From sequence record MT682711.1: DNA of 64,000 nt; one strand, written 5' to 3'. This document shows, one piece after another, positions 1 through 5,961 of the stretch. The position numbers and the translations under genes are program-made. The number at the start of each line of letters is the position of its first letter. Position 1 is the stretch's first letter. The notes below the pieces were generated by a model. The model saw nothing but the letters and a program-made list of their open reading frames with translations, was not told the origin of the DNA and searched no databases. The DNA comes from Escherichia phage vB_EcoM_FB.

Positions 1-264
1 TGCAATCTTAACTCGGCGGTTGATGATATCACGGAAGTCAATACGATTTTCTTGGATTTTCAGCCAGTTACCAGATTTGTCTTTGGTATGGGTAGAGTAT
101 TCACCGTTCCACCAGAAGTCGGTAGCATAAGCCATGGCTTCGTATTTCTTAACTAAGGCATTCACTGCATTACCATTAGGATTGTTACCGAATTTTTCTA
201 CCAGAGCTTTGATGTCTTTATCAAGAGCGGAAAGAGTAGTACGAATAAAGTTTAACTTGTTCAT
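1..264 (-). CDS. hypothetical protein, N-terminal 88 codons only (ORF runs off left edge)
   Basis: ATG at 264..262 with GAGGAG SD; frame open to position 1; no family recognised. Confidence 0.45.
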   Translation of the reverse strand, partial: MNKLNFIRTTLSALDKDIKALVEKFGNNPNGNAVNALVKKYEAMAYATDFWWNGEYSTHTKDKSGNWLKIQENRIDFRDIINRRVKIA

Positions 265-290
265 TTTTAATCTCCTCATGTTTTGATAGG

Positions 291-323
291 TCTATAGTAA
301 CATGTGAGAATCTTGCTGTAAAC
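291..323 (-). promoter_or_regulatory. T4-type early promoter (GTTTACA, ~17 nt spacer, TACTAT) for the edge ORF
   Basis: RC reads GTTTACA...TACTATAGA then GAGGAG-ATG; same module recurs across the window. Confidence 0.5.
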
Positions 324-329
324 AACTTT

Positions 330-337
330 TATAAATA
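330..337 (+). promoter_or_regulatory. late promoter TATAAATA upstream of gene 24
   Basis: exact TATAAATA about 30 nt before the ATG at 366. Confidence 0.6.
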
Positions 338-365
338 AACATATACCCTCAATAAGGAAAGCGCA

Positions 366-1649
366 ATGGCAAAGATTAACGAATTACTGCGCGAGTCAAC
401 AACTACTTCCAGCAACTCATTGGGTCGCCCTAATCTTGTTGCTTTGACCCGTGCTACAACCAAATTGATTTACCGTGATATTATCGCCGAACAACGTACT
501 AGCCAGCCTATTGCTGCACTGTATGGTGTCAAATATCTTACCCCTGATAATGAATTTAGTTTCCAGACAGGTGCCTCTTATGGTGGTGAAGTTGGTTCTA
601 AAGACCGTGAAACTATCCCAGAACTCACAGATAAGGCCCAGGCGATTGCTCAGGGTGAATATTTCAAGTACCAGAATGTGGTTTATAAGGCTCTTAAAGC
701 AAGCCCACTCGCGTCCACTAGCGCCACAGAATTGGCTGATGCTCTTCAAGAAGGTTTAGTGTCATTAACATGTCGTCTGGTTCCTGATGCTGCCCATACC
801 ACTAAATTTGAAGCGAGTGATGTAGAAATCTCTGATGCTGTATTCCAGGTTAATAAATGGAATGCTCCGGTTAAGACCCGTAAATTGAAGACGGCTTTGA
901 CTGTAGAATTAGCGCAGGATATGGAATCAAATGGCTTTGACGCGCCGGCGTTCTTAGAAGACCTCTTGGCTACAGTAATGGCAGATGAAATTAATAAAGA
1001 CGTTCTGCAATCTCTAATAACCGTATCCAAACGTTATAAAGTTACTGGTGTATCTGATAACGGCATCATCGATTTGTCTTATGACAGTGCTCCTGAATCT
1101 GCACGTAAACTTTATGAACTCGTTTGTGAGATGAATTCTGAAATCCAGAAAACTACTTCTTATTCTGGCACGTTTGTTGTGGCTTCAAGTCGTGTGGCTG
1201 CAATGCTTGCAGGTTCTGGCTGGTTAAAACATAAACCCGAAGATAATAATTGGCTTCCGGAAACTGCATACGGATATTTGTTGAATGGTCTGCCTCTGTT
1301 TTGTGACGTTAACAGTCCATTAGATTATGTTACCGTTGGTGTTAAAGAGAATTACGGCGGTAATGAAGTTGTCGGTTCTATTTTCTACGCTCCCTATACC
1401 GAAGGCTTAGATTTAGATGACCAAGAACACGTCGGTGCTTATAAGGTTATTGTTGACCCGGATTCATTACAACCTTCTATTTCTCTGATGGTTCGTTATG
1501 CACTATCAGCTAACCCGTACACCGTGGCTAAAGACGATAAAGAAGCTCGTGTTATCGATGCAACCAATATGGATTTAATGGCTGGACAGAGCAATATGTC
1601 TTATCTGGTTGGCGTTAAACTTCCGGCAATTATTTACGAGGCTGATTAA
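366..1649 (+). CDS. 24: head vertex protein gp24
   Basis: 427 aa; N-terminus MAKINELLRESTTT and the RKLKT-LTVELAQD block match recalled T4 gp24/gp23 fold; AAGGAAAG SD. Confidence 0.9.
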   Translation: MAKINELLRESTTTSSNSLGRPNLVALTRATTKLIYRDIIAEQRTSQPIAALYGVKYLTPDNEFSFQTGASYGGEVGSKDRETIPELTDKAQAIAQGEYFKYQNVVYKALKASPLASTSATELADALQEGLVSLTCRLVPDAAHTTKFEASDVEISDAVFQVNKWNAPVKTRKLKTALTVELAQDMESNGFDAPAFLEDLLATVMADEINKDVLQSLITVSKRYKVTGVSDNGIIDLSYDSAPESARKLYELVCEMNSEIQKTTSYSGTFVVASSRVAAMLAGSGWLKHKPEDNNWLPETAYGYLLNGLPLFCDVNSPLDYVTVGVKENYGGNEVVGSIFYAPYTEGLDLDDQEHVGAYKVIVDPDSLQPSISLMVRYALSANPYTVAKDDKEARVIDATNMDLMAGQSNMSYLVGVKLPAIIYEAD

Positions 1650-2929
1650 TGTCTAAGATTGTAGACCTAATTAAAGAATCCACATTGACGGCTGCCAGCT
1701 CGGTTGGCCGTCCTGCTCTTCTTTCATACACCCAAGCAACTAATAAACGAATCTTTAAAGCCCTAGTTGCTGAACAAAAAACAAATCAACCGGTTGCTGC
1801 TCTGTATGGGGTACGTGTACTGAATCCTGACGACAAAATGACTTATCTTGGTGGAGCAACATTTGCGGGCCAGATTGGTATGACGGAACGTGAAAATATT
1901 CCAGAATTTACTGATTCATCTACAGCTTATGCGGTCGGTGATATGTTCCAGTTTGAAAGCGTAGTGTTTAAAGTTCTAGAAGCATCTCCTTTCGCCGGAA
2001 CCACAGAAACCAACCTCAGCGAAGTTATTTCTGAAGCAGTGGCAGCCGGCCATATCCGTATGGTGTCGGATGCTGCTATTACTTCTAAATTTGAACAAGG
2101 CCATCCTGAAATTGCTGAAACCGGATTCCGTATCGACAAATGGCAATCTGAAGTTAAATCACGTAAACTGAAAACTTCATTGACAGTCGAATTAGCCCAA
2201 GACCTAGAATCTAACGGGTTTAATGCTCCTAATTTCGTTGAAAATCTGCTAGGCATTCAAATGGCAGAAGAAATTAATAAGGATGTATTACAGTCATTAA
2301 TTACCGTGAGCTCTCGTTTTAAAGTCCAGGGTGTTTCTGAAAAGGGTGTATTAGACCTTACCAACCCTCGCTACGATAATGCCCAGGACCGTGCTCGCAC
2401 ATTATATTATTATATGTGTGAGATGAACTCTGCCGTCCAACGACAGACTTCTTTTGCCGGGACTTATGCAGTAGCTAGTTCTCGTTGTGCTGCTATTCTC
2501 GCCGCCTCTGGTTGGGTTGAGAAAAAGGAAGACCAGGACGAATTGGCTTATGGTATATTAAAGAATGGCCTACCACTTTATGCTGATATGAATAGTCTAT
2601 GTGATTATGTTATTGTTGGTGTAAATGCCCAGATGGGTGAAGGACAGACGGTCGCATCTTTATATTATGCGCCTTATACGGAAGGTTTGAATGTGGTTGA
2701 CGAAGAAGGTGATACTTCAGTTGGTGAATTTAAGGTTATTGTTGACCCGGAAAGCTTACAACCTACAGTAGCATTGCTTGCTCGTTATGCATTGACTGCA
2801 AACCCTTATACCGTCGCTAAGGACGATAAAGAAGCCCGCATTATTGATGGTTCTGATATGGACAAAATGGCTAATCAAAGTCAATTGAGTTCTTATCTCG
2901 GCGTAAAATTACCGCCTTTAGAAAAATAA
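1649..2929 (+). CDS. gp24-like paralog (second vertex/capsid-family protein)
   Basis: 426 aa, roughly half identical to the preceding ORF along its length (SRKLKTSLTVELAQDLESNGF); start overlaps upstream stop (TAATG). Confidence 0.85.
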   Translation: MSKIVDLIKESTLTAASSVGRPALLSYTQATNKRIFKALVAEQKTNQPVAALYGVRVLNPDDKMTYLGGATFAGQIGMTERENIPEFTDSSTAYAVGDMFQFESVVFKVLEASPFAGTTETNLSEVISEAVAAGHIRMVSDAAITSKFEQGHPEIAETGFRIDKWQSEVKSRKLKTSLTVELAQDLESNGFNAPNFVENLLGIQMAEEINKDVLQSLITVSSRFKVQGVSEKGVLDLTNPRYDNAQDRARTLYYYMCEMNSAVQRQTSFAGTYAVASSRCAAILAASGWVEKKEDQDELAYGILKNGLPLYADMNSLCDYVIVGVNAQMGEGQTVASLYYAPYTEGLNVVDEEGDTSVGEFKVIVDPESLQPTVALLARYALTANPYTVAKDDKEARIIDGSDMDKMANQSQLSSYLGVKLPPLEK

Positions 2930-2930
2930 A

Positions 2931-2948
2931 AGGGACCTTACGGTCCCT
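2931..2948. terminator. bidirectional hairpin between gp24 paralog (+) and rnlB (-)
   Basis: AGGGACC-ttac-GGTCCCT flanked by A and T runs. Confidence 0.6.
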
Positions 2949-2955
2949 TTATCGT

Positions 2956-3963
2956 TTATTTGGATACTAGTTCAACCCATACATGTCTTAATGTTTCTTT
3001 TACGCACTCAACGAGCTGCTTTTTAACTTCAACGGGATTTTCCGCATCAGTTAATTCCAATTCTTCACGGGCGGCTTCTTCAAGGATATCCTGGACTGTC
3101 AAGCCCATCACCTTTCCGAAATCCTTCGGCGATACTTCGCCAATCTTACTGATGACATTGTTAATGCGGTTAACAGTCACATAATCGGTGAATTGCCACA
3201 TCAAATCCATATCGTCTTGGGACAATACCACTGCAACTTTAATAGGCTTATCAGACTTTTTCTTCTCGCTGAATTTAGAGTTCTTACATTTAATCGCCAC
3301 ACGATTTCCGTTTGGAAGCCAGGTAGGAACATCAGGTTTCAATACAAAGCCTTCAGCCGTGAATACCTTACCTTCTACCTTAGGAATAAAATCGGTTGAG
3401 TTTGCAATAGTTAAGCCTGCGTTATCCACTGCAAAATTATAATCAGGAACAACTGAATCAAAATCATTAGGAAGTTTAATAAGGTCTTCAAAGCTACCAG
3501 TGGCCAGACATGGAGCTACCTTAAACTTATGGATAATACAGAAGGCTTCCATCAATGTATCGGTTAGAACAGATTCTGAGCCATCTTCTTTAGTAACTCG
3601 GATATCGAACACATAAAAGTCTTTATCGCCGTAGTCCACATTCTTCTGGATGCCTGTCCCAGCGAATTCGCCATAAATCTGGTATGACTGATAATTAATC
3701 GATTCAATTAGATGTTGAACTGATTTAATAGAATCAGCGTAGTTCTTAAGTACAATTTCATAACCATAGAAATCTTCAGCAGGGAGGATAGGGCCAGTGC
3801 GCTTGGCGCATGTGACTGCGTCACGTTCTATGATTAAACTAAAGTTGGTTCCATGAATCTTCTCACGTGCTACCCATTCACCACCAGTCAAACCGTTAGT
3901 ACGGAGTTTTTCGATAAACTTACTGTTGTAGTGGTTTTCGAGACTGCTATATTTCTTGAACAT
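2956..3963 (-). CDS. rnlB: RNA ligase 2
   Basis: 335 aa; [20 protein letters not shown] and [10 protein letters not shown] (KxHGxN adenylation motif) as in T4 Rnl2. Confidence 0.95.
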
Positions 3964-4049
3964 AAATCACCATAATAAATATAATTAAATAGAAGAGCTA
4001 GTAGTCTTCTGTCACCAAGCCAAATGGGTTAACGGAAGGACCTAGACCC

Positions 4050-4075
4050 ATTATATCACACCTAAATTTAAAGCA
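4050..4075 (-). promoter_or_regulatory. putative middle promoter (MotA box TGCTTTA, 13 nt, TATAAT) for rnlB
   Basis: RC reads aTGCTTTAaatttaggtgtgaTATAAT. Confidence 0.4.
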
Positions 4076-4077
4076 TA

Positions 4078-4287
4078 TTACTTTGAACTAGAACGCGCTT
4101 TGCGCCGAACCTTGTTGTTCAATCTTTTACGATAAACAACCTTTTCTTTCGCTTTAAATTTGGCCTTGGCTTGTTCTACATCAACCCATGCTTTGGCCAT
4201 GTCCTTAGCGGTCCCGCCCATTTTTTTAGCAATTTCTATAAAATTCAACCCAGATTCGTGTAAAAAATGTACTTTAACCTTATCCAT
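4078..4287 (-). CDS. hypothetical small basic protein (24.x position)
   Basis: start re-set to ATG at 4287 (MDKVKVHF...), downstream of the promoter -10; lysine/arginine-rich C-terminus. Confidence 0.5.
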   Translation of the reverse strand: MDKVKVHFLHESGLNFIEIAKKMGGTAKDMAKAWVDVEQAKAKFKAKEKVVYRKRLNNKVRRKARSSSK

Positions 4288-4316
4288 AACAATTCTCTCG
4301 TTGAGTTGGTAAACCC

Positions 4317-4347
4317 ATCTTAACATAGAATTTTTAACTTGTAAACA
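4317..4347 (-). promoter_or_regulatory. early-type promoter (GTTTAC ... TAAGAT)
   Basis: -35 GTTTAC and -10 TAAGAT on the minus strand upstream of ATG 4287. Confidence 0.4.
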
Positions 4348-4370
4348 GGAATTTTGTACTTTAATGCAAA

Positions 4371-4388
4371 ATGGGCCTTGCGGCCCAT
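4371..4388. terminator. hairpin downstream of hoc
   Basis: ATGGGCC-ttgc-GGCCCAT perfect 7 bp stem. Confidence 0.5.
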
Positions 4389-4390
4389 TA

Positions 4391-5239
4391 TTAATAAATG
4401 TAATCGTATATAATACCAGCTTCTAAAGCGGTGCGATGAATAATTCGACCGTTACGAGATTCTTGTACATCAACCTCTGAATAGTCGGTAATCATTTTTT
4501 GAAGTGTATATCGGTGCAAATAATACGGGCTATCCGGGTCATCTGTTTTCCAGTCTTTGCCTTCAAGAGTCATTTTCTGGATTTCATCCATAACCCACCA
4601 ACCAACCCAAATATATGCTGAATTACGAACAGGGAGTGGATGAACGTAAGGTAATTCGCCATCCGGAACCGGTGCGACTTTAGCCGTGACTGTTACATTA
4701 CCGGTTTTTGTGACAGTCGCCGGGTTATAATCAGTCGCCGAAACCGCAACAGAAACTTCAATAACCTGTGAACCTTCAGTGCTTGTATCGATTGCTAGAG
4801 TATCCGTGGTGCCAACTACAGGAGAACCGTCTTTCTTCCAAGAATAGGCAAAAGTAGCACCAGCAGGAGCGCCGACCACATCCGCTTTAAAAGAAGCTGG
4901 AGTGCCTTCCGGAACATTAATCGAAGCTGGGGTTAATGTCACAGAAACACCGGAAATGGTTTTATTCTGGATAGTTAAAGTTGTTTCGGCTTCAGCTGTT
5001 TCTGGTTCGCCGTCCGCCGGTGTAGTTGTTGCAACAACTTTAATAGTCTTGCTGCCTGCCGGGCCAACAGCAACATAATCCATTGCAGCAGTCACAGAAG
5101 ATTGAGGAACGCCATCAACGGTCCAGACAAATGATTCGGTACCTTCAGCTGCAGCACCGGAACCGGTCGCAGTGAAATTGGTTGTTGCTCCAATAACGGC
5201 CGTAGCCGCCAAAGGAGCCATATCTACGGTATAAGCCAT
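4391..5239 (-). CDS. hoc: Hoc outer capsid protein (Ig-like repeats plus capsid-binding C-terminus)
   Basis: 282 aa; C-terminal GELPYVHPLP...WVMDEIQKMT...YYLHRYTLQKM as recalled for T4 Hoc; Thr/Val-rich Ig-like repeats. Confidence 0.85.
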   Translation of the reverse strand: MAYTVDMAPLAATAVIGATTNFTATGSGAAAEGTESFVWTVDGVPQSSVTAAMDYVAVGPAGSKTIKVVATTTPADGEPETAEAETTLTIQNKTISGVSVTLTPASINVPEGTPASFKADVVGAPAGATFAYSWKKDGSPVVGTTDTLAIDTSTEGSQVIEVSVAVSATDYNPATVTKTGNVTVTAKVAPVPDGELPYVHPLPVRNSAYIWVGWWVMDEIQKMTLEGKDWKTDDPDSPYYLHRYTLQKMITDYSEVDVQESRNGRIIHRTALEAGIIYDYIY

Positions 5240-5248
5240 AATAAACCC

Positions 5249-5920
5249 TTATTTTAAAGTGACAAAAGATGAGTTACGAGTTTCACGTACTAATACTGAA
5301 CCATTACGATTAATGTAATAAATCAGACTAAATAATGTTTGGTGGGCAGAAGGATGTTGGAAAGCAGTTGGACGTTCTTTCCAATCCGGAGTCTCAGAAA
5401 TCCATTGGTAAATCCACCAAGGAACGGTGCAATAACCTGGGTTCTTACCGATAAGCAAAAGATTAGGACTGAAGTTTTCAGGTAAAGAGAATACAGGTTT
5501 TTCAGATTCAACAACCTTGGCTATAGCCCCTTTGAATTTCTCTTCGTCAAATGGAACATCCTCTTCGATAATCTCTACCTTAGGAAGTTCGGCTACCTCA
5601 ACGACTTCTACTGCAGCCTCAGGGGCATCGAACAACAGGGTGGCTTCTTCTTTAGCTGGTTCAGCACCATCAACAAATTCGTTAGCACCTGTAAGTTCGT
5701 CGGCAGCATCAATCAAATCAGAAATGGACAACCCTTCGGTTTCTGGAAGTGGTTCGTCAGCCAAGGCTTTAAAGCCTTCAGAGATATCGATAATCAAATT
5801 ATCAAACGAACGGGTTTTCTTAAGTTTTAAACCGAACTGTTCGCCGTATTCGATTAACTTAGCTTTAGCTTCTTTTTTATCTTCGAGTGCACGAAGCTCT
5901 TCAATATATTGAGTATCCAT
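5249..5920 (-). CDS. inh: Inh, inhibitor of prohead protease
   Basis: 223 aa; position between hoc and uvsW; acidic middle region; recalled T4 Inh similarity. Confidence 0.75.
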   Translation of the reverse strand: MDTQYIEELRALEDKKEAKAKLIEYGEQFGLKLKKTRSFDNLIIDISEGFKALADEPLPETEGLSISDLIDAADELTGANEFVDGAEPAKEEATLLFDAPEAAVEVVEVAELPKVEIIEEDVPFDEEKFKGAIAKVVESEKPVFSLPENFSPNLLLIGKNPGYCTVPWWIYQWISETPDWKERPTAFQHPSAHQTLFSLIYYINRNGSVLVRETRNSSFVTLK

Positions 5921-5939: not shown

Positions 5940-5947
5940 TATAAATA
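5940..5947 (+). promoter_or_regulatory. late promoter TATAAATA for uvsW
   Basis: exact TATAAATA 29 nt before ATG 5976. Confidence 0.55.
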
Positions 5948-5953
5948 TAACTA

Positions 5954-5961
5954 TATTTATA
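5954..5961 (-). promoter_or_regulatory. late promoter (TATAAATA on minus strand) for inh-hoc
   Basis: plus strand TATTTATA; divergent from the uvsW late promoter 7 nt away. Confidence 0.5.

Follow-up and report, generated by a model that had tools for sequence, protein, structure and literature searches.

The head of phage T4 is the reference model for a large prolate capsid, and it has exactly one vertex protein. T4 gp24 is essential for head assembly unless mutations in gene 23 bypass it, and gp23-type major capsid proteins are hexamer formers of about 520 amino acids with a 65-residue propeptide. The vertex protein has been described as a derivative of gp23 (PMC9958956, PMC10580926); it plays a part in how stable the capsid is in the gut (PMC10580926) and in how type IV Thoeris immunity detects a phage (PMC13243611). 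Here we analyzed a 64,000-nucleotide stretch of Escherichia phage vB_EcoM_FB (MT682711.1; hereafter the window), in which two gp24-type genes stand in tandem. Sequence comparison identifies them as genes 24a and 24b (products A and B) of a WG01-like Dhakavirus, an old, conserved tandem pair of vertex-protein paralogs. The pair is already known, having been in public annotation since the JS98 record (genome paper cited as J Bacteriol 2007); what we add is its spread, its apparent single old origin, selection on both copies, the operon layout, the protease site, the paralog-specific residues and codon usage. The strongly conserved second vertex paralog is found in more than 100 sequenced relatives, among them Salmonella phage S16 and coliphages that are candidates for therapy. 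If both proteins are in the virion, the non-equivalent vertices of a prolate capsid would be chemically distinguishable, a point relevant to stability and to the control of head length, and T4 would have been reduced by losing the second protein.

The tandem pair and its family

The two genes and the elements around them are as follows (positions within the 64-kb window).

366..1649, + strand: gene 24a (paralog A), 427 amino acids; capsid vertex protein, T4 gp24 ortholog
1649..2929, + strand: gene 24b (paralog B), 426 amino acids; diverged second gp24-type vertex protein
330..337, + strand: T4-type late promoter motif TATAAATA, 29 nucleotides before the gene A start
354..358, + strand: AAGGA, Shine-Dalgarno-like, for gene A; seen in sequence
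1638..1641, + strand: GAGG Shine-Dalgarno for gene B, within the final codons of A
366..395, + strand: predicted propeptide of A, MAKINELLRE, 10 residues, cut after Glu10; by likeness to T4 gp24
1649..1678, + strand: predicted propeptide of B, MSKIVDLIKE, 10 residues, cut after Glu10; I-x-E↓S motif
2929..2950, both strands: GC-rich hairpin with a 9 bp stem between the convergent B and rnlB; terminator-like

An earlier note on this DNA had described two consecutive, homologous open reading frames (ORFs) of 427 and 426 amino acids, the second beginning on the stop codon of the first, and both points held. BLASTP aligned A with B over their full length (234/428 identical, 55%; 77% positives; E 2e-175), a likeness far above chance, so the two are full-length paralogs; their genes are 60% identical at the nucleotide level in the window. 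At the junction, GATTAATGTCT, stop and start overlap as TAATG, the first base of the B ATG (1649-1651) being the final base of the A TAA (1647-1649). The N-terminus of A (MAKINELLRESTTT) equals that of T4 gp24, as the note had said, and the T4 record likewise shows a single gene 24, with rnlB directly after it.

The alignment to T4 gp23 and gp24 that the note had proposed placed both proteins with gp24. A matched the T4 gp24 structure 1YUE over residues 1-424 (E 8e-198) and B over residues 1-423 with small indels only (E 3.7e-149), while gp23 chains matched each of them at just ~1e-11; because the match to 1YUE runs end to end and is far stronger than that to gp23, we assign both to gp24. Identity to T4 gp24 is ~70% for A and ~56% for B. 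Both match PHROG 138 (head and packaging) and Pfam PF07068 (Gp23/gp24 capsid domain), the latter at 330.2 bits for A and 321.6 bits for B against a cut-off of 24.4. We also considered B as a gp23-type major capsid protein, which is ruled out by its length of 426 amino acids, by its identity to gp23 of the same genomes (24–29%, over partial length) and by the separate gp23 gene (519 amino acids) that WG01 carries upstream of the pair.

With T4 gp24 (1YUE, 5VF3, 7VS5) the pair shares length, a place between gene 23 and rnlB, a late-promoter motif and the protease site at residue 10. It differs in that the single T4 gene serves 11 vertices, whereas here there is an extra gene, B, whose product carries fixed residues of its own in I-domain linker 1 and the N-terminal segment. 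The arrangement also recalls the gp23-to-gp24 duplication, a tandem capsid-gene copy followed by specialization, of which B would be a second round; gp23 and gp24, however, are ~25% identical with distinct hexamer and pentamer roles, whereas A and B are 55% identical.

Distribution, origin and selection

The first 6 kb of the window are 99.8% identical to Escherichia phage WG01 (KU878968, Dhakavirus) over 100% of the query, and 88–99% identical to other members of the JS98 group. Public records name both genes: WG01 has ‘head vertex protein’ on both ORFs, JS98 and JS10 have 24a and 24b (‘gp24 head vertex protein’), VR7 has 24(1) and 24(2), and VR20, VR5 and CGG4-1 have ‘vertex protein I’ and ‘II’. 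All of these are the same pair in the same order with a tight junction, and their orthologs are 88–97% identical to A and 89–97% identical to B; JS98 differs from the window in that its genes abut, whereas B of the window overlaps A by one base. Gene order in WG01 and JS98 is 20-67-68-21-22-23-(small orf)-24a-24b-rnlB. Full-text literature searches returned no discussion of the function, virion presence or structure of the second gp24, the JS98 genome paper lying outside that search, and nothing on the spread or age of the pair in literature that included a 2023 review of the T4 head (PMC9958956). Two-copy data were likewise absent from the proteomes of Morganella phage MP1 and Klebsiella phage ValerieMcCarty (single gp24) and from the Kosakonia Kc305, Sextaphag and phage transposon-sequencing (Tn-seq) papers.

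A tblastn search with B, counting orthologs at E ≤ 1e-175, found B-type genes in 116 phage records (66–100% identity), with hosts that include Escherichia, Klebsiella, Salmonella, Enterobacter, Erwinia, Kosakonia and Yersinia. The order A then B between gene 23 and rnlB was confirmed in at least one genome of each of six genera, and the eight two-copy genomes listed here are those compared throughout.

Dhakavirus, two-copy: WG01, JS98, JS10
Gaprivervirus, two-copy: VR7
Gelderlandvirus, two-copy: NP4
Kanagawavirus, two-copy: Kosakonia phage 305
Marfavirus, two-copy: Marfa
Roskildevirus, two-copy: Erwinia phage Cronus
Single gene 24: Tequatrovirus (T4), Mosigvirus (HX01), Karamvirus (ZX13), Jiaodavirus (Shinkou), Tegunavirus (TG1)
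Single gene 24: Bragavirus, Krischvirus, Biquartavirus, Pseudotevenvirus, one Acinetobacter phage

The earlier note had allowed that its second ORF might prove to be the universal neighbor of gene 24 in T-even genomes, or might be missing from virions and show signs of decay. On the sequence side, neither is the case: T4, Mosigvirus, Karamvirus, Jiaodavirus and Tegunavirus have gene 24 alone, and we saw no decay, the B ORF being intact in the 116 records and its ratio of nonsynonymous (dN) to synonymous (dS) substitution ~0.05.

We built neighbor-joining trees of 26 gp24 homologs over 419 columns with two distance measures. The B proteins formed a monophyletic clade with 100% bootstrap under both measures, and the A genes formed one clade with the single genes of T4, Mosigvirus and Karamvirus (98%), by which A is placed as the ortholog of T4 gp24. 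Monophyly of A alone received 1% bootstrap, and monophyly of A with B, as expected of lineage-specific duplications, 0%. The order of genera within the B clade (Cronus, Marfa, Kanagawavirus with Gelderlandvirus, Gaprivervirus with Dhakavirus) was the same within A. Between A and B, dN was 0.37–0.41 and nucleotide identity 60–63% in all eight genomes, and synonymous sites were saturated (dS above 1). With dN the same across the eight, and on nucleotide identity and dS, we reject gene conversion between A and B. Because the B clade is monophyletic and the T4-type single genes nest within the A clade, the pair is most simply traced to a single duplication, no younger than the last ancestor shared by the six genera, after which both copies were inherited together and B was lost in the lineage to Karamvirus, Mosigvirus and Tequatrovirus.

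Two points tell against this history. The deep nodes are weak (43–58% bootstrap), which leaves the exact age of the duplication and the count of losses uncertain, and transfer of an A-B cassette between genera would yield equally congruent trees. Jiaodavirus and Tegunavirus may have split off before the duplication or may have lost B too; of the single-copy sequences, the Jiaodavirus protein comes closest to B (59–63%), and it lies about as far from A. A gp23 tree, as proxy for the species tree, had backbone bootstrap of 41–62% and was therefore left out of the counting of losses.

One B gene stands apart within its genus. JS98 B (L001:5647-6930) groups with VR7 B (L006:3501-4784) with 98% bootstrap, and its dN is 0.041 to VR7 B versus 0.069 to WG01 B (window 1649-2929); JS98 A stays with the rest of the Dhakavirus A genes (100%). 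The discordance suggests that a B allele once passed between members of Dhakavirus and Gaprivervirus, the breakpoint lying close to the A-B junction.

Both copies are under strong purifying selection, and neither shows decay. For A, dN/dS was 0.044 (WG01-JS10) and 0.061 (WG01-JS98), with synonymous sites unsaturated; for B it was 0.055 for WG01-JS10 and also 0.055 for WG01-JS98, though there dS was already 1.25. Over the longer distance from WG01 to Cronus, dN was 0.296 for A and 0.290 for B, and by these measures the present-day evolution of B is no faster than that of A. A dN/dS of ~0.05 is a sign of function, not of essentiality.

Operon layout, processing site and paralog-specific residues

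The TATAAATA motif at 330-337 is the sole + strand copy within positions 1-5900. In all eight two-copy genomes a copy precedes the A start by 33–37 nucleotides and A itself contains none, leaving B with no promoter motif of its own. The Shine-Dalgarno of A has the context AAGGAAAGCGCAATG in six of the eight, with close variants in Kosakonia phage 305 and Cronus, and in every one of them the A-B junction measures −1 to +2 nucleotides and is preceded within a few bases by GAGG or GAG. Terminators are annotated after B in NP4 and Marfa, at the same place as the window hairpin. From the single TATAAATA, the tight junction and the hairpin after B, we read the pair as one late operon in which translation of B is probably coupled to that of A. 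The T-run of the hairpin at 2929-2950 is better on the minus strand, i.e. for rnlB.

Codon usage separated the two genes. A was closer to gp23 than B was in all eight genomes, both by correlation of relative synonymous codon usage (RSCU; 0.57–0.81 for A, 0.35–0.62 for B) and by an index like the codon adaptation index (CAI), which was higher for A throughout. B correlates with uvsW at r = 0.85, with rnlB at r = 0.78 and with gp23 at r = 0.62. The closer likeness of A to gp23 suggests, weakly, that B may be produced in smaller amounts than A.

The prohead-protease consensus of T4 has the form L/I-x-E. The first ten residues of A are identical to those of T4 gp24, LLRE↓S is kept throughout the A orthologs, and LI-x-E↓S is present in all eight B orthologs in the same alignment column as the T4 LRE↓S. 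The T4 prohead protease gp21 cuts 10 N-terminal residues off gp24 (PMC9958956). In alignments with A and with B, the mature gp24* chain 5vf3_a begins opposite residue 11. B has thus retained the processing site, at which we infer cleavage.

We next asked where the paralogs differ, scoring columns in which 13 A-type or single-copy Tevenvirinae proteins all share one residue and the eight B proteins all share another. Twelve columns satisfied this strict definition, and nine of them fall within T4 residues 8-66 (positions 8, 25, 26, 32, 34, 36, 56, 57 and 66), a stretch that holds 21 of the 128 commonly invariant columns (Fisher p = 4.5e-5). A relaxed definition gave 10 of 19 sites in the same stretch (p = 2.4e-4). 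None of the 12 lies in I-domain linker 2 (residues 143-154). Outgroups match A at positions 34, 57, 66, 244 and 335, so at these positions B is the derived copy. The residues that tell A from B include L/R at 34, Y/V at 57, F/Y at 66, P/Q at 244 and L/Y at 415. A and B resemble each other most in the spine helix and P-domain strands (75–85% identity in windows 181-220 and 381-400).

According to a 2022 cryo-electron microscopy study of the prolate T4 head, gp24* residues 26-29 in the expanded capsid are in a parallel beta interaction with an I-domain linker that belongs to the next subunit of their own pentamer, and residues 11-20 extend onto a neighboring hexamer; I-domain linker 1 (around residues 60-81) is stabilized by intracapsomer contacts and linker 2 (143-154) by neighboring capsomers (PMC9546572). 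By this mapping, the paralog-specific residues are predicted to lie in elements that join subunits of one pentamer. The divergence can be read as one of subunit recognition within the pentamer, with the fit to the gp23 lattice conserved.

Possible roles of paralog B and the neighboring genes

The account we favor, which is also what the earlier note had suggested of the vertices, is that B serves as a second, less abundant vertex subunit and assembles into pentamers of its own, giving a head with two kinds of vertex; we consider the chances for and against this to be evenly balanced. Under this proposal both proteins would be made late as precursors, each would lose its 10-residue propeptide to the prohead protease, and both would enter the head shell as pentamer subunits. 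A would be the more abundant species and B the scarcer because the codons of B are less gp23-like and its translation depends on coupling to A, and the two would form separate homopentamers because the fixed differences cluster at T4 residues 25-36 and 56-68, in the intra-pentamer contact elements. The result would be a prolate head with two chemically distinct kinds of vertex, e.g. one apical versus ten shoulder vertices, and the T4, Mosigvirus and Karamvirus lineages would have lost B. Special-vertex viruses and paralogous head-protein families (e.g. phiKZ-like SPN3US) offer a likeness, in that icosahedral vertices need not be chemically identical. We draw on that comparison for the general idea and claim no homology or shared mechanism. 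More tentatively, and on the doubtful side of even, in six or more genera A pentamers may occupy most corners and B pentamers a geometrically distinct subset, such as the apical vertex opposite the portal or a ring of five, where B would mark position along the long axis of the capsid; T4 would then be secondarily simplified.

Several observations weigh against placing B in pentamers of its own. We found no proteomics or cryo-electron microscopy of any two-copy phage in the searchable literature that would place B in virions. In T4, one gp24 fills 11 vertices with 55 copies that show no significant conformational differences (PMC9546572), so a prolate head needs no second vertex protein. The contacts of the paralog-specific residues were mapped from a published verbal description rather than from coordinates, and the linker that pairs with residues 26-29 may be one other than I-domain linker 1. 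The codon-usage argument is weak because the eight genomes are phylogenetically related and not independent. Sequence evidence leans toward two kinds of vertex in the virion and falls short of establishing them.

Co-assembly of A and B into mixed pentamers, of stochastic or fixed composition, is possible but rather unlikely. The ten off-axis vertices of a prolate head are asymmetrically surrounded, which a heteropentamer could match, and co-transcription with translational coupling would have both proteins made at the same time and place. The high similarity of the spine helix and P-domain strands fits mixed pentamers as well, and changes in the intra-pentamer contact elements would equally suit an ordered A-B interface. 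However, T4 pentamers are all fivefold-symmetric, their 55 subunits lacking significant differences (PMC9546572), and the lower codon adaptation of B speaks against equal stoichiometry.

It is quite unlikely that A and B are interchangeable or condition-specific, either one fitting every vertex, with both kept for robustness. Under such a scheme the gain could lie in stability that differs by environment, or in evading a host defense that detects the vertex protein. Type IV Thoeris needs the T6 vertex protein to be triggered, and the substitution A380V escapes it (PMC13243611). That B was lost without replacement in T4-type lineages implies that it is dispensable in some backgrounds. The numbering of the T6 and T4 vertex proteins we take to coincide at residue 380, and the Cronus ortholog of B has Val at this escape column, although WG01 A and B both have Ala. 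Redundancy, moreover, rarely outlasts such divergence with dN/dS ~0.05 and separately fixed residues, and we saw no separate regulation for condition-specific use. Across the alignment, the column of T4 gp24 residue 380 has Val in Cronus B (L012:3501-4784), Ala in all other aligned Tevenvirinae A, B and single-copy proteins, and Gly or Ser in three more distant outgroups.

Still less probable is that B is absent from the finished shell and acts as a gp24-derived assembly factor, transient in the prohead, or as a decoy for a host sensor. The lack of virion data for B and a codon usage nearer that of the non-structural genes uvsW and rnlB than that of gp23 would suit such a role, but B keeps the entire gp24 architecture, with small indels relative to 1YUE, and the propeptide cleavage motif, and its spine helix and P-domain strands, which bind capsomers to one another, are highly conserved; a protein freed from shell geometry should have lost part of this. 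Although a tandem arrangement alone might suggest a recent duplication, an assembly artifact or a decaying pseudogene, we dismiss all three as practically impossible, the first being refuted by the 60% nucleotide identity and saturated synonymous sites (dS above 1), the second by independent assembly in 116 records and tandem pairs in six genera, and the third by intact ORFs and dN/dS ~0.05.

Several features of the surrounding genes were noted alongside. Upstream, positions 1-264 on the minus strand hold a small conserved gene between gene 23 and 24a (PHROG 6003, E 7e-50), the counterpart of JS98 orf173, at the place where T4 has the homing endonuclease segD. A small minus-strand ORF occupies the same place in VR7, JS10 and the single-copy HX01, and is annotated in VR7 as similar to JS98 orf173. 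Downstream, the Hoc homolog at 4391-5239 (minus strand) has 282 amino acids compared with 376 in T4 and probably has fewer immunoglobulin-like domains than T4 Hoc; Hoc length and copy number are highly variable across the two-copy genomes. Near 24-rnlB-hoc, a + strand ‘tail fiber-like’ or collagen-repeat gene is found in JS10 (L007:6585-7592), VR7 (L006:6534-7817), Kosakonia phage 305 (L010:6607-8016) and Cronus (L012:4827-5840), followed in JS10, VR7 and Kosakonia phage 305 by a + strand hoc-like gene. The window, WG01 and JS98 have no such fiber-like gene, so it does not strictly co-occur with the second gp24. Between the divergent inh (minus strand) and uvsW (+ strand), two opposed TATAAATA motifs, at 5940-5947 (+) and 5954-5961 (−), look like back-to-back late promoters.

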